64,000 bases of DNA from positions 1 to 64,000 of the IMG/VR virus record IMGVR_UViG_3300014160_000002, one strand, 5' to 3'. Below are positions 5,203-63,890 of the stretch, piece by piece (the first letter of the stretch is position 1; each line of letters begins with the position of its first letter). Made by a program: the position numbers and the translations under genes. Origin of the DNA: an uncultured virus (IMG/VR IMGVR_UViG_3300014160_000002) (lineage: Duplodnaviria; Heunggongvirae; Uroviricota; Caudoviricetes). The notes under the pieces were generated by a model. That model searched no databases. It had not been told where the DNA came from and was given only the letters and a program-made list of their open reading frames with translations.

Positions 5203-5871
5203 TTATTTAATTTCTCTTGCTTTTTCATAGACCGCTCGAATGCTCGCAAAGCGTTCTCTGGTAGACAGGGTATGCGGGTGGTAGGTGATGATATCGTTTT
5301 CCGGGAGGGGCATCCTCCCCTCCGTCATACTATAACGGTCGTCATGCTCCGTGGGGCAGACGCTATTGAACGATAATGTTGCCCATACCCACCAGTCCTC
5401 GACATTGTAACAACGGGTGTCCCTTGAACAAGGCGCTGAGGCGAGGAACTCCAACGCCCTCCTGCTAAGCCAGTACCCGGAGCCTCCATAGGGCTGGTTG
5501 TTTCCCCCCACTCCCCGTTGTCCTATATGGTCATGCCCCTCGAATCCCGAGCGGAGCAGACGGGGAACGCAGGCATAGGTGTCAACATCACATTTGAAAG
5601 CGTGGTCATAGCCGTGGGCTACCACCCACTGGTATGCAGCTTGGACCTTGGACGAGAGGTCCGCATACGTGTCGGAAACATCTAATGAGACCTCATCGTC
5701 ATCTGCATTCTCTAGTCTAGGATTACCTAGAAAAAAGCGATAATCAACTGGGCACCCCATCAACCATGTTTCCCTGAGTTGCTGCTGCCAATGACGATGG
5801 GCATGGCAACTCATGATGGATATCAGCGGTTGCAACTGCTCACCCCCACCCTTAAGTGGTTTCCATACCAA
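5203..5871 (-). CDS. Glycosyltransferase, GT-A fold (galactosyltransferase/Fringe GT31-like)
   Basis: LRETW, FFLG, DTYADLSSKV, FKCDVDTY (DxD), GGSGYWLSRRAL, EDWWV. Confidence 0.85.
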   Translation of the reverse strand: MVWKPLKGGGEQLQPLISIMSCHAHRHWQQQLRETWLMGCPVDYRFFLGNPRLENADDDEVSLDVSDTYADLSSKVQAAYQWVVAHGYDHAFKCDVDTYACVPRLLRSGFEGHDHIGQRGVGGNNQPYGGSGYWLSRRALEFLASAPCSRDTRCYNVEDWWVWATLSFNSVCPTEHDDRYSMTEGRMPLPENDIITYHPHTLSTRERFASIRAVYEKAREIK

Positions 5872-5874
5872 ACC

Positions 5875-6297
5875 CTATGCGCTTCCTACGGCAAACACAT
5901 TCAAGTAGGCACGATAAATCTCGTAAGCGGCACTGTTACCACTCGTACATCTTACACGAAGGTCATAAACGTCTCCTTCGTTCATGATGTCAAGACCCCC
6001 TACGGAAATGGGGAACCCTGTGGGGTCAGAGTTCTCAGCAATCAGATAATTCATCAAACTGCCATTTTTGAATACGGCCAATTGAAAATCCCCACTTCCA
6101 GTAACCGCCGTTACAAAAACAGCAATCATTACGGGAACCGCAAAAGACACGGTTGAAGTAAGGGAACCCGTCGTGGTGTTCCCAGTCATTCCTGAGTTTT
6201 GAACGACGGTCCACGAAGCCTGCTCAAACTGATACCACGTATCTTCCGTGTCCAAGGAAAGAGTCTGATACCCTGTAGCTGTCTCACCGTATGTCAT
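5875..6297 (-). CDS. Hypothetical beta-rich protein, possibly virion-associated
   Basis: AAGGGGG SD; Thr/Ser/Gly-rich; candidate late promoter upstream. Confidence 0.6.
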   Translation of the reverse strand: MTYGETATGYQTLSLDTEDTWYQFEQASWTVVQNSGMTGNTTTGSLTSTVSFAVPVMIAVFVTAVTGSGDFQLAVFKNGSLMNYLIAENSDPTGFPISVGGLDIMNEGDVYDLRVRCTSGNSAAYEIYRAYLNVFAVGSA

Positions 6298-6387
6298 AAA
6301 ATTCCCCCTTAAAATAAATTCTTCTTCCTATAACCACTTTGAAAGTCTAAACTTTCAATCTCTTTGGACAGGAGGCATATCAGACCT

Positions 6388-6837
6388 ATGTCCAAAAGAT
6401 TAACCTACGCTTATACGGCAGGACTCATTGACGGCGAGGGGACCATATCTCTCGTTTACAAGTACAAAAGCAATCCCTACCGCTGGCCGACCATAACCGT
6501 GCCAAGCTGCACAAAGGAACTCACCGACTTCCTGAAAAATCAATTTGGCGGGTGTATCTCCAACAAGAGGCCGGACAAGGTGGGACATACACCCTCAAAG
6601 ACATGGCGACTCGCCGGGGACAAATCCTTAGCACTTCTTAATCTACTCCTTCCTTACCTTAAGGAACCCGATAAGATAAGGCGGGCAAAGTTGCTGATTG
6701 ATAAATACAAGAGGTTGACGCCAAGGAATGGAAGGTACACTACGGAACAACGTATCAAAAAGTTGGAATTCGAGCATCAGTTCTTGGAGGGAGGAAAGAC
6801 GAGCCGACAGACCACCCGTATACGCTGGGCAAGTTAG
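6388..6837 (+). CDS. Free-standing LAGLIDADG homing endonuclease
   Basis: AYTAGLIDGEGTI motif, FGG, LLPYLK; on the opposite strand to its neighbours. Confidence 0.9.
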   Translation: MSKRLTYAYTAGLIDGEGTISLVYKYKSNPYRWPTITVPSCTKELTDFLKNQFGGCISNKRPDKVGHTPSKTWRLAGDKSLALLNLLLPYLKEPDKIRRAKLLIDKYKRLTPRNGRYTTEQRIKKLEFEHQFLEGGKTSRQTTRIRWAS

Positions 6838-6838
6838 T

Positions 6839-7192
6839 TGGTGGAGGCGACGGGGAGTTGAACCCCGTGTCCGAAAAGTGTCACAACAAGAAGACTACAC
6901 GCTTATCCTGCTTCGTACTGCTCTTTGCCATGACTCTGCTGAAACAGGCATATCAGAACCACGGTGCAAGCCTTCATCTCGCCGGATATCGGCTACATCC
7001 CCGGTCGCAGCCTCTCTATCGGCGCTTGGCCTCTACCCGACAGGCTAAAGCAGAGCAAGCGTGCCTAATCTAGCGATTAAGCAAATGCATATTGCGCTGT
7101 GGCAATTGCGTTGTTAACCCTTGTTACGGGCAGGGTAACCTCCCGGCGTGCCTTCCTGTAATGAGCGCTCCCGTCGAAACCAGAACGCCCCC
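6839..7192 (-). ncRNA. ssrA: tmRNA
   Basis: 5' GGGGGCGTTCTGGTTTCGACGG; 3' GGACACGGGGTTCAACTCCCCGTCGCCTCCACCA; G3:U alanine identity pair; internal tag ORF ATAQYAFA* at 7103-7077. Confidence 0.95.
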
Positions 7193-7237
7193 ACACTTAC
7201 ATAATACCACCAACTACGAGCTTTCGTTGGTTTTTAC

Positions 7238-7332
7238 TTGGTCCCGGTGTTGGGAGTCAAACCCAATCCATGCCCTAATCTGGGGCTTATGCAGTTTATA
7301 AGACTGCTCGTTCGGTCGCAAACTTCACCGGG
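7238..7332 (-). tRNA. Non-canonical tRNA with UAU anticodon (nominally Ile) and long variable arm
   Basis: Acceptor CCCGGTG/CACCGGG-ACCA, anticodon arm GCAGT-CTTATAA-ACTGC, T arm TTGGG-TTTGACT-CCCAA. Confidence 0.8.
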
Positions 7333-7336
7333 GAAT

Positions 7337-7413
7337 TGGCACCGTGGACGGGACTTGAACCCGCTAATGACCGGCTTGAAGGGCCGGTGACTCGGCGCTT
7401 TGTCTTCCACGGT
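7337..7413 (-). tRNA. tRNA-Glu(TTC), atypical (C33)
   Basis: CCGGC-CCTTCAA-GCCGG; acceptor ACCGTGG/CCACGGT-GCCA. Confidence 0.75.
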
Positions 7414-7417
7414 ATCT

Positions 7418-7492
7418 TGGTAGCCCTGCCGGGACTCTAACCCGGTTCCGCTGGTTGAAAGCCAGCCATCCTAAACCATAGACGACAAGGCC
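7418..7492 (-). tRNA. tRNA-Glu(TTC)
   Basis: GCTGG-CTTTCAA-CCAGC; CCA end. Confidence 0.9.
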
Positions 7493-7644
7493 AGAAATTT
7501 GAGGCTGCGAAATATCCACGTTTGGGAGTACAAGGACCGGTAGCAGCCTCGGTTTATCGGTACCCACTACGTGGCTCAGTTTAGACCGCCGTCCTGATAC
7601 GACCACGATTGAAACCTGCGGTCAAGGTGTATCGTGGCCTCGCT

Positions 7645-7719
7645 TGGAGCACCCGGAGAGAATCGAACTCCCGCATAAAGGGTTTGCAGCCCTCTCCCTT
7701 CCCACTTGGGTACGAGTGC
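7645..7719 (-). tRNA. tRNA-Cys(GCA)
   Basis: GAGGG-CTGCAAA-CCCTT; U73; CCA end. Confidence 0.92.
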
Positions 7720-7802
7720 AAATTTGGCTCGCCTACCACTCTCTCAGTGGCTTTGAACCGTGCGGGCAGCTTTCACCGCCGCAGGCTATCTGGCTCGCAA
7801 TG

Positions 7803-7877
7803 TGGAGCACCTGAACGGAATCGAACCGTTGCATAGCTGTTTTGCAGACAGCCGCCTTTCCACTTGGCGACAGGTGC
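7803..7877 (-). tRNA. tRNA-Cys(GCA)
   Basis: GCTGT-CTGCAAA-ACAGC; U73; CCA end. Confidence 0.93.
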
Positions 7878-7878
7878 G

Positions 7879-8112
7879 TTATTCTTCTTCCTCAGCCGAC
7901 TCCTTACTTAGGTCCACCGGCTGGCGAATCTTGGCAATCTTTCTTTCGGTGGATACGGAGAGTCTCACGTACTCCACTCGTGCCCAATGGACGGTGTGAA
8001 CCGCCATCCACCCGACCACCACCCATTTAGAAAAGATGGTGAAAATCCTGTCGGGGTTGATGCTTATAAACCAAAGCACCACGCACATAAACCAATGCCA
8101 CAAAGAAATCAT
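7879..8112 (-). CDS. Small membrane protein inside the tRNA array
   Basis: GGGAGG SD; two hydrophobic segments; acidic tail. Confidence 0.6.
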   Translation of the reverse strand: MISLWHWFMCVVLWFISINPDRIFTIFSKWVVVGWMAVHTVHWARVEYVRLSVSTERKIAKIRQPVDLSKESAEEEE

Positions 8113-8163
8113 CTAGCCTCCCGTCATGCAGTGTGTTCCCCCAAAGCATGGCGGGGGTGAAAC

Positions 8164-8240
8164 TGGTAGCCCCGGTGGGATTCAAACCCACGGTCTCCGC
8201 CTTGAGAGGGCGGCGTCCTTGGTCGCTAGACGACGAGGCC
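8164..8240 (-). tRNA. tRNA-Glu(CTC)
   Basis: CCGCC-CTCTCAA-GGCGG; CCA end. Confidence 0.92.
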
Positions 8241-8311
8241 ATGTCTTAGCAGGGCACGACTGGCTACGATGAGTTTATGTCAGCGGGAAGCCTGATTCTG
8301 TGCCCTAAGTT

Positions 8312-8387
8312 TGGTGGACGGGAAGGGAGTTGAACCCTCAGTCTCTCGGGTGCGAGCCGAGCGCTTTCCCAGTTAAGCTACCTGCCC
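8312..8387 (-). tRNA. tRNA-Ala(CGC)
   Basis: CTCGG-CTCGCAC-CCGAG; G3:U70. Confidence 0.92.
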
Positions 8388-8523
8388 AAATGCAATCGTG
8401 GAGGGAATCGAACCCTCTCTCCTGTTGCAGCCTGCAAGCCGCTACAGTTCTTCCCCCCGTTACTTCCAAAGCCAGACAGCCTTCGGTCTTGCAGGACCTA
8501 TTGCCATCTCGGGGGCTGAAACT

Positions 8524-8599
8524 TGGTGCGCCGAGCAGGACTCGAACCTGCGACCTCTTCCGTGTCAGGGAAGCGCTCTAACCACTGAGCTACCAGCGC
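8524..8599 (-). tRNA. tRNA-Val(GAC)
   Basis: CTTCC-CTGACAC-GGAAG; CCA end. Confidence 0.95.
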
Positions 8600-8701
8600 A
8601 AACGCATGGATTTCCCTACGGTCGCCTAGACCCCGTCTGTTTATGTACTGCTTTGCGGGGCACTGCTACTGGTTAGCTCGCTACTAGGGCCATGCGTAAA
8701 A

Positions 8702-8779
8702 TGGCGGTCCATACGGGATTTGAACCCGTGGTCTTCTCCGTGACAGGGAGACGAGGACTCCAGACTCCTCCAATAGACC
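8702..8779 (-). tRNA. tRNA-Asp(GTC)
   Basis: TCTCC-CTGTCAC-GGAGA; G73; CCA end. Confidence 0.92.
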
Positions 8780-8785
8780 GAAACT

Positions 8786-8863
8786 TGGCGGTGAGTACGG
8801 GATTTGAACCCGTGTTTCTACCGTGACAGGGTAGTGTCTTAGGCCGGGCTAGACCAACCCACC
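8786..8863 (-). tRNA. tRNA-Asp(GTC)
   Basis: CTACC-CTGTCAC-GGTAG; G73; CCA end. Confidence 0.92.
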
Positions 8864-8955
8864 GTAATCGGACCCTATTAACCCGCTCATGGGCGGAGGC
8901 TTTCGCCGGGGCGGCACATAGCACAAATACTATCCCGTTCGTATGCCGCTAAACT

Positions 8956-9030
8956 TGGTGGACCTAAAGGGAATCGGACCCTTGACCTCTCGGCTGCCGA
9001 CCGAGCGCTCTCCCGCTGAGCTACAGGCCC
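8956..9030 (-). tRNA. tRNA-Ala(GGC)
   Basis: CTCGG-TCGGCAG-CCGAG (C33); G3:U70. Confidence 0.88.
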
Positions 9031-9192
9031 ACAAAAATTCGGGACAACCGGCTGGTTAGGCTAGTCATCCGCAGGTTCTACTGCTCGGGGTCCCTTTTCA
9101 GGGGAACCACCACAGTCCCCCTTACTGAGGGACCCTGCTGGTAGAACCTCGCCACTCGTCAGCTTCGACAGCCCTTAGAGTGACTACAATCT

Positions 9193-9266
9193 TGGAGCGG
9201 GTGACGGGACTCGAACCCGTCTCTACAGCTTGGAAGGCTGCGGCACAACCTCTATACCACACCCGC
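9193..9266 (-). tRNA. tRNA-Gly(TCC)
   Basis: GCAGC-CTTCCAA-GCTGT; U73; CCA end. Confidence 0.92.
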
Positions 9267-9357
9267 AAATCTTGTGAGGACATTGACGCAGCCCCCTGTT
9301 TACGTTGACCGGCGTGTCAGAGCCGGTGTCCTGCCGCTGGACCTCAGCGGACTTACT

Positions 9358-9431
9358 TGGTGGAGCTACGGGGATTTGAACCCCGATTCCTTGCGTGCAA
9401 GGCAAGTGTCCTGCCGTTAGACGATAGTCCC
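9358..9431 (-). tRNA. tRNA-Ala(TGC)
   Basis: CTTGC-CTTGCAC-GCAAG; G3:U70. Confidence 0.9.
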
Positions 9432-9436
9432 AAACT

Positions 9437-9511
9437 TGGAGCGGGCGGTGGGGTTCGGACCCACGACCTCTTCCTTGGCAAGGAAGCATTCTACCACTGA
9501 ACTACGCCCGC
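9437..9511 (-). tRNA. tRNA-Gly(GCC)
   Basis: CTTCC-TTGCCAA-GGAAG; U73; CCA end. Confidence 0.92.
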
Positions 9512-9583
9512 AAACCGCCAAGTAGGTTCTTAACCAATATGCATCGGGTCTTGGACCGTTCCTGCATTACCCTTGGCGAAATA

Positions 9584-9662
9584 TGGTGCGCCGTGAAGGA
9601 ATTGGACCTTCGACCTCTCGCTTGTGGAGCGAGCGCTCTAAACCGGGCTGAGCTAACAGCGC
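9584..9662 (-). tRNA. tRNA-Val(CAC)
   Basis: CTCGC-TCCACAA-GCGAG (C33); CCA end. Confidence 0.88.
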
Positions 9663-9670
9663 ATCGAACT

Positions 9671-9745
9671 TGGTACCCACTGAGAGAATCGAACTCCCGA
9701 CATCCTCCTTGTAAGAGAGGCGGTCTTCCACTGGCCTAAGCGGGC
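9671..9745 (-). tRNA. tRNA-Val(TAC)
   Basis: CCTCT-CTTACAA-GGAGG; CCA end. Confidence 0.92.
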
Positions 9746-9757
9746 AAATCTTGTACT

Positions 9758-9789
9758 AAAAACAAAAAAGGCGGCTTTTCAGCCGCCTT
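9758..9789 (-). terminator. Intrinsic terminator (attenuator) just upstream of tRNA array 1
   Basis: AAGGCGGCT-GAAA-AGCCGCCTT followed by TTTTGTTTTT. Confidence 0.9.
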
Positions 9790-9811
9790 CGGGGGTCCTT
9801 GCTTGGATTTT

Positions 9812-9913
9812 CTATCCAAGCCCTCCCGAAGGCGAGGTATCGCCTCCCTCACACACTGCGGCGACCGCTTCTATCAAGTCAACCGGGTTTGTGATGGCCG
9901 TTTTCATGTTCAT
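9812..9913 (-). CDS. Putative attenuator leader peptide 1 (MNMKTAITNPVDLIEAVAAVCEGGDTSPSGGLG)
   Basis: 33-codon ORF between promoter and terminator; codons 11-25 match the anticodons of the downstream tRNA array. Confidence 0.75.
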   Translation of the reverse strand: MNMKTAITNPVDLIEAVAAVCEGGDTSPSGGLG

Positions 9914-9917
9914 CTCG

Positions 9918-9954
9918 CTTCTATATAATACTGTCGGTAGTTCAAAAACTTCAA
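9918..9954 (-). promoter_or_regulatory. Promoter of tRNA array 1
   Basis: TTGAAG-N18-TATTAT; ACTACCGACAGTATTATATAGAAG nearly duplicates the sequence at 62202-62225. Confidence 0.7.
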
Positions 9955-9965
9955 AAATTTGCGAT

Positions 9966-10124
9966 AGACTTGACGGCGGCTCACTTGCGGGCGTGCAACC
10001 AAAGCTGCCTTGGTCTCCCGGTTGGCTCCGGTCTCACATTCTTATCTGCGAGTCTCCCCTACCAAGTTCCCTTGGCTTCATCCGGGGTATCTTCGGCCCC
10101 GACTACGGAGCCTCCGTCAAGTCT
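9966..10124 (-). ncRNA. Candidate multi-branch ncRNA (~160 nt) with its own extended -10 promoter
   Basis: Terminal stem AGACTTGACGG(A)GGCTC/GAGCC(G)CCGTCAAGTCT enclosing five hairpins; TGGTATAAT at about 10134-10142. Confidence 0.65.
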
Positions 10125-10148
10125 CTCACTTACATTATACCACGAAAT

Positions 10149-10460
10149 TCAGGATTTTGAGGAAAAAAGTTTTCCTTCCTTCGCCCGGATGACATGCTCT
10201 CGGAGGTCATTCACCCTGTAGACCCCATACATCCACAAAACACCTTGAATAAACCCTATCCACCGATTGACCTTAGCCTCATCATAATGCTCGGCTTTAG
10301 TGCCGTTGGCGTAGTTGAACATCTCCTCCACCATCCACGCAGCGTGACGGGCCTGCTCGATACCGGGGTGAGGGCTTTTCGGCTCACCCTCAAGCCGTTG
10401 GGGCAATATCCACAATCGTTGGAACTCGCTCCGGTAGAACTCTAACAATTGGTATTCCAC
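10149..10460 (-). CDS. Hypothetical phage protein
   Basis: 103 aa with KVNRWIGFIQGVL, a pattern typical of small phage proteins. Confidence 0.65.
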   Translation of the reverse strand: MEYQLLEFYRSEFQRLWILPQRLEGEPKSPHPGIEQARHAAWMVEEMFNYANGTKAEHYDEAKVNRWIGFIQGVLWMYGVYRVNDLREHVIRAKEGKLFSSKS

Positions 10461-10914
10461 CCTGTGCCTCCGCTCGTATGAGCATCAAAATCTTACCTAA
10501 GTAGTTGTATTTCTGTTTCTTAGCACACTTGGCACAAAGGCAAATGCCCCAAAAATTATCGTGCCAATAATTGGTTTCCTCCAACACCATATAGCCGGTT
10601 CCCACCAGCTTGAGAAGGAGGAAAGTGTTCCTAAACTTCTGCCGGACGAGTTCCTCCATGATGTTAATGTTTACACTGTACCAAAGCGGCCACAGATGCC
10701 CAGCTTTGGTCAGTTTTTTGGCGAGCTTCTTTGCTTCGCCGGGGGTCATCCCGACAGCCCGGAACTGCTCCCGGATAGTGGGGTCAAGGAACTTGGCGGC
10801 TTGATAGGCGTGCTCTACCGAGGCGTACTCCAGCCCGTACAGATACACCGGGCAGGGGTAGTAGAAATTGGAACAGAAATCGAGAACCCCGGAGAACGCT
10901 ATATCACGCCACAT
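10390..10914 (-). CDS. NADAR (YbiA-like) family protein
   Basis: SNFY, SVEHAYQAAKF, MEELVRQKF, WHDNFWG, NYLGKILM. Confidence 0.9.
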   Translation of the reverse strand: MWRDIAFSGVLDFCSNFYYPCPVYLYGLEYASVEHAYQAAKFLDPTIREQFRAVGMTPGEAKKLAKKLTKAGHLWPLWYSVNINIMEELVRQKFRNTFLLLKLVGTGYMVLEETNYWHDNFWGICLCAKCAKKQKYNYLGKILMLIRAEAQGGIPIVRVLPERVPTIVDIAPTA

Positions 10915-11458
10915 CCTTGCCCTCCTCGTTCAGTATCAGATAAGGCTTGCGCACATGGGCGCTGAAATACGTCGCCGCCATGAGCGCTTTTTCCAGCCGG
11001 GGCTTGGCGGAATCATCAGGGGTGACACTGAGCGCCCCGAGAGCATAAGGGCTTCCGCAGCCGATTGCCTCAAAGCCATCTACCCGCTCGAATACTTGAA
11101 AGTCTCCCTCAAAGCGGAAGATATGCCCCTTGAAGGCCACGAGGAATATCCCGGTGCTGCTATGCTCATCCTGTTGTGCCATGAAGCCGCCCACATTGAA
11201 CGTCCGGCGCACCGCCTCAATAAACTCGGTTGCCATGAACTTTATCAGTGGGACCTTGGGGTCCTTATAGACAGGGGGTTCCAGCTTGTATTGAAGAAGC
11301 TGTGTCATACGCATCGACCCCACTGCTCCAATCAAGTAGGGTCCATTAAAGAATGCCTTCCTGTTGGTGAGAGTCACCATATCCTCACCATCAGAGGCCG
11401 CAGAATCAGCGCCCATCCAAACCTTTCCGTTCTCAACCACGGCTGCTACACAAGACAT
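10904..11458 (-). CDS. Ntn-hydrolase / proteasome beta-HslV-like protease subunit
   Basis: N-terminal M-S-C-V, MGADS, conserved Lys, AIGCGSPYALGAL. Confidence 0.75.
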   Translation of the reverse strand: MSCVAAVVENGKVWMGADSAASDGEDMVTLTNRKAFFNGPYLIGAVGSMRMTQLLQYKLEPPVYKDPKVPLIKFMATEFIEAVRRTFNVGGFMAQQDEHSSTGIFLVAFKGHIFRFEGDFQVFERVDGFEAIGCGSPYALGALSVTPDDSAKPRLEKALMAATYFSAHVRKPYLILNEEGKDVA

Positions 11459-62189: not shown

Positions 62190-62225
62190 TGCAAAAAACC
62201 GACTACCGGTGGTATTATATAGAAG
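62190..62225 (+). promoter_or_regulatory. Promoter of tRNA array 2
   Basis: ACTACCGGTGGTATTATATAGAAG, near-copy of the array 1 promoter. Confidence 0.7.
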
Positions 62226-62411: not shown

Positions 62412-62486
62412 ATGTTGACTATCACCATGCCGCACACACAAACGCAAACTACGATTAGTTCAGGCGGCGGAGCCTGCTTGGCATAA
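62412..62486 (+). CDS. Putative attenuator leader peptide 2 (MLTITMPHTQTQTTISSGGGACLA)
   Basis: 24-codon Thr/Ile/Gln-rich ORF overlapping the antiterminator arm. Confidence 0.7.
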   Translation: MLTITMPHTQTQTTISSGGGACLA

Positions 62487-62509: not shown

Positions 62510-62538
62510 AGCCGCCCAAAAGGCGGCTTTCGTGTTTT
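62510..62538 (+). terminator. Intrinsic terminator (attenuator) upstream of tRNA array 2
   Basis: AGCCGCC-CAAAA-GGCGGCT followed by TTCGTGTTTT. Confidence 0.75.
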
Positions 62539-62552
62539 ATGGGGGTTTTTTG

Positions 62553-62915
62553 ATGGCGAAGTTTGAACAGCATTGCACGGACTGTCAAATCATCCTCGGC
62601 AAGAAGTATGAGGATGTCAACCGGTGGGTCGATGGGTTGTTTTGGAAGTTCGGTCCCCGGCACCGCAGGATGCGCCACAACCTGCATGGTGTGAGAGAGG
62701 CGCAGAAGTTGTTCGGCCCGGATGGAGCGAAAGCGGCTATTGTTCACATCGTCCGGGATATGGGAAAGGTTCCGCATGAGCGGGATTACGATAGGGTCCC
62801 CGAGGGAGTGGAAATCTTCCCCGGCTTCTGTGACCCACCGCTTGGATTTGTGCAGCACTTTGCGTTGTTCCGTGCCGCCGCCGAAGCGGAGATAGAGCGA
62901 ATCTTAGGCGGGTAG
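62553..62915 (+). CDS. Hypothetical His-rich phage protein (HRRMRH...H motif)
   Basis: EQHC, WVD, HRRMRHN, HIVRD; stop codon overlaps the 5' end of tRNA-Ile. Confidence 0.7.
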   Translation: MAKFEQHCTDCQIILGKKYEDVNRWVDGLFWKFGPRHRRMRHNLHGVREAQKLFGPDGAKAAIVHIVRDMGKVPHERDYDRVPEGVEIFPGFCDPPLGFVQHFALFRAAAEAEIERILGG

Positions 62916-62981
62916 CTCAGCGATACGAGCAATCGGCTGATAACCGATAGGTCGAGGGTTTGACTCCCTCTCCGCCTACCA
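62906..62981 (+). tRNA. tRNA-Ile(GAT)
   Basis: ATCGG-CTGATAA-CCGAT; A73; CCA end. Confidence 0.92.
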
Positions 62982-63036
62982 TTTTGATACGGTGTACCGC
63001 ATAGATAGGGTTTATGCGGTCAGCCGTATAAGTCAT

Positions 63037-63111
63037 GGCACCGTCGTCCAGCGGCTAGGACCTCCGCCCGATTAGCGGAAGACCCCGGTTCGAGTCCGAG
63101 CGGGGCTACCA
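63037..63111 (+). tRNA. Atypical tRNA with GAT anticodon on a Glu-like body
   Basis: D arm GTCC-AGCGGCTA-GGAC, TCCGC-CCGATTA-GCGGA, T loop TTCGAGT, CCA end. Confidence 0.7.
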
Positions 63112-63314
63112 TTTGAATGCCTGTTGACCGGGAGTTTTCCGGCTCAATGCAGCAGGTCCCGAGTGGGTTCATGATTCGTGCAAAGGCAGGTCATGGATTC
63201 CGGGAACCGGGGAGACCCGAGAAACCTGTTACCTTGTTCCTTGCCGGGCATTCATCAGTTAGCTCATCCACCAAGTGTGGAAAGAGTTGGGACCGTCCTC
63301 GTGATGGTCCTTAT

Positions 63315-63390
63315 GCTACTGTAGCTCAATTGGCGGAGCGCCGGTCTCGTACACCGGAGGTTGCAGGTTCGACGCCTGTCAGTAGCTCCA
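63315..63390 (+). tRNA. tRNA-Thr(CGT)
   Basis: CCGGT-CTCGTAC-ACCGG; CCA end. Confidence 0.93.
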
Positions 63391-63450
63391 AGTTTTAGGT
63401 ATCGTATAATGGACCTTATCTCGGATAACGTCCATTATATTGAACCTTAA

Positions 63451-63526
63451 GCTGCCGTGGCGCAGTTGGTAGCGCACCTGCTTGGTAAGCAGGGGGTCGG
63501 GAGTTCGAGCCTCCCCGGTAGCTCCA
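63451..63526 (+). tRNA. tRNA-Thr(GGT)
   Basis: CCTGC-TTGGTAA-GCAGG; CCA end. Confidence 0.93.
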
Positions 63527-63532
63527 TTTTAA

Positions 63533-63607
63533 GCCGCAGTAGGCCAGTGGTAGACGGCATCCTTGGTAAGGATGAGGACGTGGGTTCGATTCCCACTTGC
63601 GGCTCCA
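63533..63607 (+). tRNA. tRNA-Thr(GGT)
   Basis: CATCC-TTGGTAA-GGATG; CCA end. Confidence 0.9.
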
Positions 63608-63611
63608 GTTT

Positions 63612-63693
63612 GCTACCGTGGCACAGCGGCGACTGCACCTGCCTTGTAAGCAGGCATATCACAACGGGGGTTCGAGTCCCTTCGGTAGCTCCA
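63612..63693 (+). tRNA. tRNA-Thr(TGT) with enlarged variable loop
   Basis: CCTGC-CTTGTAA-GCAGG; CCA end. Confidence 0.88.
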
Positions 63694-63735
63694 GTTTCCA
63701 AACGCACAGTTTTTGATGCGTTTGATGAATATCAT

Positions 63736-63810
63736 TCCAGAGTCGTCTAACGGTCGGACATGCGGCTTTGAACCGCAGAATGAGAGGTTCGATTCCTCCC
63801 TCTGGAACCA
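63736..63810 (+). tRNA. tRNA-Gln(TTG)
   Basis: TGCGG-CTTTGAA-CCGCA; CCA end. Confidence 0.9.
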
Positions 63811-63816
63811 AGTTAT

Positions 63817-63890
63817 TCCGGGGTCGTCTAATGTTAGGATAGGTGGTTTTGACCCATCAGATAGGGGTTAGAGTCCTCTCCCCGGAGCCA
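63817..63890 (+). tRNA. tRNA-Gln(TTG)
   Basis: GGTGG-TTTTGAC-CCATC; CCA end. Confidence 0.85.

Follow-up and report, generated by a model that had tools for sequence, protein, structure and literature searches.

In this report, we describe a short leader unit that stands directly ahead of a block of transfer RNA (tRNA) genes in the uncultured virus IMGVR_UViG_3300014160_000002 (Caudoviricetes). We read this unit, with a probability of roughly 0.8, as a ribosome-mediated transcription attenuator that gates the phage tRNA block, and as one of four such units in the same phage. The stretch of DNA analyzed, called the window throughout, comprises 64,000 nucleotides (nt) and is the first 64 kb of a 75.4-kb viral record. 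The unit, named unit C, lies at positions 9758-9954, and all of its coordinates are on the minus strand of the window. A 316,945-bp, 99%-complete copy of the window's phage (G001) is identical across the region. The sequence of unit C appears to hold what an attenuator of this kind would need: a promoter-adjacent open reading frame (ORF), codons matching the tRNAs encoded behind it, an intrinsic terminator, and an antiterminator that would exclude the terminator. The translation of the leader, the coupling of transcription and translation, the stall-driven read-through and the physiological trigger are what we infer from these elements.

In the proposed mechanism, RNA polymerase would start just upstream and transcribe the short leader ORF, the middle of which would serve as a series of test codons, roughly one for each anticodon type of the block behind. 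The 3' third of the ORF (region 2) would pair with a downstream region 3 and in this way sequester the 5' arm of a terminator located 9-24 nt before the first tRNA. If all the test codons were read quickly, the ribosome would keep pace with the polymerase, enter region 2 and the stop codon, and melt the antiterminator; the terminator would then form and the block would be off. If any test codon were slow, whether through shortage, lack of charging or cleavage of its cognate tRNA or because the phage has yet to supply it, the ribosome would lag, the antiterminator would persist, and the polymerase would read through into the block. The outcome would be a demand-driven negative feedback, in which the tRNAs of a block, by speeding up the reading of their codons in the leader, turn off the transcription of their own genes.

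The leader unit and the codons of its tRNA block

A preliminary description of the window had reported here a 33-codon ORF, a terminator and a tRNA array behind it, together with the mutually exclusive pairings 1:2, 2:3 and the terminator. All of these are found in the sequence, arranged as follows:

9925..9954, minus strand: promoter-like site, with TTGAAG at 9954-9949, an 18-nt spacer and TATTAT at 9930-9925 (9/12 matches), 11 nt upstream of the leader ATG
9812..9913, minus strand: leader ORF C, 33 codons plus TAG (MNMKTAITNPVDLIEAVAAVCEGGDTSPSGGLG), with an alternative in-frame ATG at 9907
9839..9883, minus strand: sensor run, codons 11-25 of the leader
9830..9845, minus strand: hairpin 1:2, AGGCGA (9845-9840) pairing with TCGCCT (9835-9830), loop TACC
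9825..9834, minus strand: region 2, the 5' strand of the putative antiterminator, CGCCTTCGGG, within ORF C; pairs with region 3
9802..9820, minus strand: inner hairpin, located between region 2 and region 3; the TAG stop codon (9814-9812) is at the apex
9784..9793, minus strand: region 3, CCCGAAGGCG; pairs with region 2 (10 bp) and shares 7 nt with the 5' arm of the terminator
9758..9790, minus strand: intrinsic terminator (3:4), with a 10-bp stem (9790-9767), a GAAA-type loop and a T-run to 9758; -17.6 kcal/mol
7418..9745, minus strand: tRNA block C, 14 ARAGORN genes (Val x3, Gly x2, Ala x3, Asp x2, Glu x2, Cys x2)
7239..7414, minus strand: two atypical tRNA-like genes at the end of block C, namely a 94-nt tRNA with a long variable arm and the anticodon UAU (7332-7239) and a second stretch (7414-7340)

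The array had been counted as 16 tRNA genes. The 14 genes called by ARAGORN are firm, and the other two are weak. The UAU tRNA was called only at lowered stringency (ARAGORN was used at default and lowered stringency), and the matches of the atypical pair to the Rfam tRNA-Sec family, 30.1 and 28.1 bits with 7414-7340 at 28 bits, are under the 47-bit threshold. In a related phage, G002, a 93-nt tRNA-Ile(tat) is found at the place matching that of the UAU tRNA (L003 8234-8326).

The fifteen codons of the sensor run had been described as all different, with 14 of them read by the array and every one of its 13 anticodon types covered, and this is what we find. The boundaries of the run were a post hoc choice in the original finding, and codons readable by block C make up 34.8% of the codons in long ORFs, GNN codons being common. 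A permutation of the codon match, carried out over the full 75.4-kb record, nonetheless returned an extreme result. Among 15-codon windows of long ORFs, 1 of 18,700 reaches 14 matches and none covers all 13 types; among 15-codon windows in all six frames, 14 matches are reached in 6 of 93,623, and of these six only leader C itself covers all types as well. When 14 array-readable codons were drawn at random according to the codon usage of the phage, all 13 types were covered in 462 of 200,000 draws.

The position of the promoter-like site implies that the 5' untranslated region (UTR) of leader C would be very short, which suggests a leaderless type of initiation; the Shine-Dalgarno-like sequence of leader C in the window is weak. 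The extended -10-like motif of this site, GTATTATRT, recurs in most of the related units described below, 6-20 nt ahead of the leader ATG. Farther upstream there is a second candidate start:

9955..10142, minus strand: distal promoter-like motif TGGTATAAT (10142-10134, extended -10) followed by a 165-nt structured, multi-branched RNA (z -5.5)

This 165-nt RNA may be a long 5' UTR akin to those of leaders A, B and D of the same phage, which also have structured 5' regions, of 125-190 nt; the 5' UTRs of A-D are without an evident common fold. The RNA (10131-9960) matched no Rfam family at E up to 1, and it has no blastn match in the other loci compared, including the contigs with C-type leaders. 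The 5' region of leader B (L084 ~1475-1550) shows a feature of its own: three short GNRA-capped hairpins in series, each followed by ACCA and a short U-run. These resemble either CCA-ended acceptor-stem minihelices or weak tandem terminators.

The phage-type promoter motif GTATTATRT occurs four times in the window, against 0.56 occurrences expected:

9931-9923: before leader C
62210-62220: ~190 nt before leader D
7209-7199: before the transfer-messenger RNA (tmRNA)
10142-10134: before the 165-nt RNA

Within block C, there is neither a motif of this phage type nor a sigma-70-like site, and a 287-nt gap inside the block (8163-7878), read for a second promoter or attenuator, holds none that is evident. 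A gap of 12 nt separates the end of terminator C from the first tRNA (9745). With the terminator so close to the first tRNA and no promoter motif inside the block, block C would be reachable only by read-through.

Contigs from two metatranscriptome runs of different studies span leader C and its terminator into the block. In run X3, a contig covers 7878-10490 at a depth of 27. In run X4, one contig covers 9184-9906 at a depth of 11.7 and the next 9887-10171 at a depth of 3.2, with the break near the predicted transcription start. The tmRNA behind the block is in contigs with a depth of 796 (X3) and 236 (X4), compared to 27 and 12-14 over the rest of block C, which argues that the contigs are RNA and not carried-over DNA. 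Taken together, the contigs give a weak hint in favor of read-through of leader C and of its start site. Some of them jump at window position 9788 from terminator C to a region judged by eye to lie just before terminator A; the terminator hairpins of leaders A and C are nearly identical and therefore act as a repeat in assemblies.

Leaders and tRNA blocks within one phage and across its relatives

The tRNA genes of G001 fall into four blocks. Ahead of each block are a short leader ORF and a T-run hairpin, and each leader draws on the codons that its own block reads. Besides unit C, the units are made up as follows:

Block A, G001: Tyr, Leu x6, Ser x3; leader begins MKNLSSNSLSSLSYSSSLLSG
Block B, G001: His, Arg, Asn, Lys, Phe, Met, Pro, Gln-CUG, Trp; leader begins MRNRKPNPMQWQPKRHF
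62412..62486, plus strand: leader ORF D, MLTITMPHTQTQTTISSGGGACLA, beginning MLTITMPHTQTQTTI; 10 of the 13 codons of its run match block D, with 5/5 anticodon types
62510..62539, plus strand: terminator D, AGCCGCC, loop CAAAA, GGCGGCT and an interrupted T-run; a GGCGGC in the ORF can pair with its 5' arm
62906..63890, plus strand: tRNA block D, Ile-GAT x2, Thr x4, Gln-TTG x2

In order to compare leaders and blocks, the codons after the start that are readable by each block were counted for each leader:

Leader A: own block 18/29; other blocks 5, 6, 0; own anticodon types 9/9
Leader B: own block 22/28; other blocks 3, 4, 2; own anticodon types 16/16
Leader C: own block 19/32 (18 without crediting AUG to the UAU tRNA); other blocks 4, 6, 4; own anticodon types 13/13
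Leader D: own block 10/23; other blocks 4, 3, 7; own anticodon types 5/5

The four leaders together thus cover 43 of the 43 anticodon types of their own blocks. No long-ORF window of equal length reaches the observed match for leaders A, B or D, compared to the 1 in 18,700 for C. Full coverage of the types is likewise rare in draws of readable codons for leader B (138 of 200,000), and it is frequent for leaders A (57,735 of 200,000) and D (114,266 of 200,000), where coverage is therefore not unusual. The Gln codons go with the block as well: leader B, in front of the block with Gln-CUG, has CAG twice, and leader D, in front of the block with Gln-UUG, has CAA twice.

The same arrangement was then looked for by geometry alone on seven contigs, namely G001, G002 and G003-G007 (one further contig and four from more distant giant phages). 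The scan called for a T-run hairpin with a tRNA no more than 600 nt behind it, and for an ATG-initiated ORF of 12-60 codons with its stop 8-78 nt before the stem. It returned 16 sites, 15 of them with a leader ORF, and the distance from stop to stem is 19-33 nt. At the single site without an ORF, in G002, the terminator filter had chosen the wrong hairpin, and the leader is evident on inspection. The terminator ends 9-24 nt upstream of the first tRNA in 12 of the 16 sites. Some of the leaders illustrate the match directly:

Ser-only block: leader MNRISSLSSSSSSFGG
Trp/His/Arg/Asn/Gln/Cys/Lys block: leader contains ARKQWRNRRHDG
Ile/Thr/Gln blocks: leaders begin MKQTQTTRTTTTQRITIT

Over the 15 units, the share of leader codons readable by the leader's own block averages 0.50, compared to 0.15 for the remaining blocks of that genome. 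Thirteen leaders have another block to be compared with, and 12 of them match their own block best. When leaders and blocks were reassigned at random within each genome, the observed sum was reached in only 17 of 100,000 shuffles. The leaders cover 134 of 139 anticodon types across the 15 units. The match is also specific to the reading frame: 239 of 468 codons match in the frame of the ORF, against 81 and 94 of 468 in the other two. For Gln, the leaders of blocks with only the CUG anticodon have no CAA and 3 CAG codons, and those of blocks with only UUG have 8 CAA and 2 CAG codons. This is suggestive of a specificity at the level of the codon, beyond that of the amino acid.

The clade appears to be poorly represented in culture, as only one cultured phage, and a distant one, was found in a tblastn search with the helicase: Tunturiibacter phage Tunturi_5 (PP885688.1, 308,711 bp), with 23.8% identity. 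A blastn search of window positions 9740-10160 against 50,697 phage records found no match. The tRNA genes of Tunturi_5 are also grouped, in three blocks. A leader and a T-run hairpin precede each of them, and in all three cases the leader fits its own block best:

Tunturi_5 leader 1: own block 14/31; others 4, 11; types 8/9
Tunturi_5 leader 2: own block 26/53; others 5, 20; types 13/14
Tunturi_5 leader 3: own block 33/48; others 4, 10; types 15/15

The filter missed the third terminator of this phage and found no ORF at the first one; both were read by eye and scored by their coordinates. The T-runs behind the three leaders lie near record positions 231306 and 239378 and, as read by eye for the third, near 251790-251800. 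Leader 3 is annotated as the hypothetical ORF308. Block 1 is unusual in that it holds a tRNA-Cys among Leu, Tyr and Ser tRNAs, and leader 1 has two Cys codons. The match matrix, the scan and Tunturi_5 all bear out the expectation, raised in the preliminary description, that leader codons would follow the content of the array across blocks and phages. In the searched passages of the Tunturi_5 paper (PMC11924767), 43 tRNA genes are listed, and the terms "attenuat" and "leader" have no occurrences.

There are two further observations on these genomes. A tRNA nucleotidyltransferase and a tRNA splicing ligase are annotated in Tunturi_5 between and inside the putatively leader-gated blocks (PP885688.1 233135-234583 and 243762-244943), which fits a neighborhood of tRNA maintenance and repair. 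In G001, G004-G007 and Tunturi_5, the tRNA genes are grouped in blocks according to codon family, and distant giant phages share this grouping: readers of GNN codons plus Cys; Ile/Thr/Gln; Tyr/Leu/Ser; His/Arg/Asn/Lys/Trp; and Pro/Met.

Conservation, folding and competing explanations

When the conserved core of leader C was used as a search pattern, it turned up at 8 loci, in 4 distinct variants; the ORF is kept in all of them and the indels are in frame. Between the leaders of the window and G002, 11 codons are identical, 10 are synonymous and 9 are non-synonymous, with all indels again in frame, and the non-synonymous changes in the sensor lead to other codons of the block. The sensor of G003 (GDIEAVGIAEAAVVCEGGD) differs from that of the window (VDLIEAVAAVCEGGD) in the order of its residues and has the same composition. 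The only non-matching codon of the window's sensor, TTG, is the variable one among the variants. The homologous leaders therefore look as anticipated from the first reading of the unit, and the evolution of leader C points to translation and to selection on codon content.

The same four variants also inform on the RNA. Compensatory changes are seen at 4 of 7 pairs in the inner hairpin and at 4 of 10 pairs in the terminator stem, and pairing holds in 96.7% of the cells, compared to 32-54% when the partners are slid by 1-3 columns. Leaders B and D and that of G002 likewise have their stop codon at the apex of the inner hairpin. None of the 6 pairs of the 1:2 hairpin varies. In the 2:3 helix, 8 of 10 pairs are invariant, one is changed on one side only, and one is lost in 2 sequences; the columns of region 3 are invariant while their flanks vary.

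The behavior of the switch was modeled by hiding the RNA up to 12 nt past the A-site codon of a ribosome and folding the rest at equilibrium. For leader A, control by ribosome position is clear in this model, with a terminator probability of ~0 when the ribosome is at codons 7-14 and of at least 0.98 from codon 18 to the stop. For leaders B, C, D and the others, the control is seen only when the transcript is cut just before the 3' arm of the terminator emerges, which is a proxy for kinetics during transcription and not a kinetic simulation. In this proxy, the 5' arm of the terminator is pre-paired upstream (0.8-0.9) while the ribosome sits in the sensor, and it is freed after the ribosome passes a certain codon, to 0.15-0.2 for B and D and to 0.3-0.5 for C. 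An antiterminator-type pairing is predicted in 13 of the 15 units, and a switch in the proxy is found in 13 of 15, at a codon position between -3 and +4 relative to the end of the matched run.

The folding also bears on the state of the unit when no ribosome is present. For leaders A-D, the prediction is then a terminator 5' arm that is already paired (0.78-1.00). Although conserved, the 1:2 hairpin does not dominate the folding, and a role of 1:2 as an anti-antiterminator that forces termination without translation was not seen there. Since the antiterminator would form by default without a ribosome, termination would depend on a ribosome that moves fast, and read-through would be expected from an untranslated leader; the default state thus appears to be read-through, unlike that of the trp leader. 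The earlier reading of a translated, codon-mirroring leader joined to a switch is supported by the comparative and statistical results; its sketch of the switch differs from this predicted default.

It should be said that several points weigh against the attenuator reading. In leaders B, C and D and in the G002 homologue, the terminator is dominant at equilibrium in every ribosome state or, for leader C, at least in most; for leader C, this means that the switch has to be kinetic, and in all four it would work only if an antiterminator made earlier is kinetically trapped. The correlation between the switch codon in the proxy and the end of the matched run (r = 0.98) is partly built in, as both measures scale with the length of the ORF. 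The 2:3 helix, being invariant in the four variants, draws no support from covariation. Most test codons occur once, where the classical attenuators repeat a codon, and the sensitivity to a single slow codon is assumed. One of the 13 leaders does not have its own block as its best match. The Glu codons do not follow a rule at the level of the anticodon, and the cases of Lys, Arg and Leu are too few, so that specificity at the codon level is no firmer than suggestive. Finally, contigs from RNA libraries cannot show transcript ends, strand or levels, and they may contain DNA; stretches that they leave uncovered carry no information.

The alternative that survives best, and which we still consider unlikely, accepts a real attenuator and lets it sense general translation capacity, amino-acid starvation, or a drug-like or peptide-specific arrest, with the codon match being secondary. 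With this geometry, read-through would follow in the same way from whatever slows the ribosome, and a shortage of charged tRNA driven by starvation would be indistinguishable from a loss of tRNA. A general sensor would, however, need none of the features that tie a leader to its block: the match is block-specific within one genome, nearly all anticodon types are covered although full coverage is rare in the draws of readable codons for C and B, and the leader follows the tRNA content across phages, as seen in the Cys codons of Tunturi_5. A peptide-specific arrest is hard to reconcile with an order of residues that is not conserved.

Less probable still is a leader that acts as RNA only, by way of processing, stability, or a structure binding a protein or a tRNA, with the ORF untranslated. 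The region is indeed strongly structured (z -5.4), the short 5' UTR and the weak Shine-Dalgarno-like sequence of the window would suit an untranslated RNA, and the T-box RNAs show that leaders can read tRNAs directly. Such a leader would not account for a codon match limited to one frame, for in-frame indels with many synonymous changes, or for an ATG and a stop 19-33 nt before the stem in every unit; nor can fifteen adjacent triplets each bind a tRNA. The Rfam searches, made at E up to 1 over window positions 5500-11000, found only tRNAs, the tmRNA and weak sub-threshold matches, with no leader or riboswitch family among them and, on both strands, no match to the T-box family (RF00230; stem I specifier loop and T-box sequence). 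On the strand of leader C between 9746 and 9954, no cis-regulatory family matched; the sole weak match there is RefA9, on the opposite strand, with 27.3 bits against a threshold of 49.

Least credible of all is a terminator that merely insulates the block from upstream transcription next to a coincidental ORF or an unrelated micro-protein: the common GNN codons and the run boundaries picked after the fact would favor it, and it is countered by the permutation tests, the recurrence of the pattern in 15 units on 7 contigs and in 3 units of a cultured phage, the lack of room for a promoter behind the terminator, and a peptide whose order is shuffled with its composition kept.

Known attenuators, possible roles and neighboring features

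The class of mechanism proposed for these units is a classical one. Leader attenuators are well known from amino-acid operons, among them thr (Thr, Ile), ilvGMEDA (Ile, Leu, Val), trpL, hisL, leuL and pheL. Like the phage units, they combine a short ORF containing regulatory codons with a terminator and a mutually exclusive antiterminator. The position of the ribosome decides between the two, as is proposed for the phage units, and the thr and ilvGMEDA leaders sense several amino acids with one leader, as the phage leaders would. The phage units differ in that they would regulate tRNA genes rather than enzymes, which would make the sensed molecule itself the product, and in that a leader would test as many as 16 anticodon types, most of them by a single codon, where the classical leaders repeat one codon. 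The trp leader terminates without translation, whereas the phage leaders are predicted to read through, and there is no sequence or Rfam relationship between them.

The pheM leader attenuator, which controls pheST (Phe-tRNA synthetase), is a related case, a leader-peptide attenuator acting on a component of the decoding apparatus and answering to the supply of charged tRNA. It is cellular, however, and concerns one amino acid and a protein gene, while the phage units would control whole blocks of tRNAs by means of many codons. The T-box RNAs also choose between terminator and antiterminator by a codon-anticodon match and regulate aminoacylation and the supply of translation; they differ in binding one uncharged tRNA without a ribosome, through a specifier codon and the T-box sequence, whereas the signal of the phage units is confined to a reading frame. 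New in the phage units would be that tRNA genes are the target, that the signal is self-referential and the sensor pan-codon, and that the logic, as predicted, is default-on.

The purpose of phage tRNA genes has been argued over for fifty years, with codon compensation, the replacement of degraded host tRNAs and the escape from anticodon nucleases as the main proposals. To our knowledge, how these genes are switched has hardly been asked. A search of the full-text literature, to which most subscription journals were outside scope, found no description of leader-peptide or attenuator control of phage tRNA genes.

As far as the sections available to us go, two papers report that phage tRNAs answer host defenses that target tRNAs and the loss of host tRNAs (PMC10264068, PMC11555353). 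These works give a reason for topping up tRNAs on demand; in the same sections, they deal with the function of the phage tRNAs and not with the switching of their genes, and in the passages of PMC10264068 that were searched, "attenuat", "leader peptide", "terminator" and "promoter" have 0 occurrences.

There are several candidates for the trigger of the units, namely cleavage of host tRNAs by a defense system, a phage-induced loss of host tRNAs, a mismatch in codon usage, and plain feedback. The earlier proposal for unit C was an array switched on only upon depletion of host tRNAs or their cleavage by defenses. This is one possible trigger, and a negative feedback on tRNA supply fits equally well. 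A broader reading, which we offer tentatively and regard as rather doubtful in its full form, would make the four leaders a code-wide surveillance and counter-defense sensor. With read-through as the default and 43 anticodon types sampled, the loss of any tRNA species to an anticodon nuclease or a depleting response would induce the matching block within seconds, in the case of block C perhaps along with the tmRNA, and the sorting of tRNA genes into blocks would serve this control.

A leader that tests the codons of its own block would amount to a direct product-sensing feedback on tRNA supply, and, as far as the literature search goes, to the first instance of tRNA genes under the control of attenuation. 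The model would also explain why tRNA genes are sorted into blocks by codon family and why there is a strong terminator directly before each block. Such a unit would also be a compact natural gauge of decoding speed, covering as many as 16 tRNA species simultaneously. With three units in a cultured phage-host pair, Tunturi_5 on Tunturiibacter psychrotolerans X4BP1, the question can be directly tested.

Other features of the window lie close to the blocks. The tmRNA, mentioned above for its depth in the RNA libraries, is directly behind block C:

6839..7192, minus strand: tmRNA (Rfam, 124 bits), with the promoter-like motif TGGTATTAT at 7209-7201

Next to its 3' end there is an ORF on the plus strand (6364-6837) with a LIDGEG motif, which by eye recalls the LAGLIDADG homing endonucleases; it has no Pfam match. 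Of the 10 large ORFs compared with PHROGs, few were named.

Between terminator D and block D, a 120-residue ORF on the plus strand (62553-62915) matches DUF6915 with 26.4 bits, just under the cut-off of 27. The ORF overlaps the first tRNA of block D by 10 nt, so that a protein gene would here be co-regulated with the tRNAs. In several blocks, ARAGORN reported two-letter "anticodons", that is, irregular anticodon loops: at L083 2665-2735, at L084 4280-4353, in L096, and in L113 (record 239476-239552).

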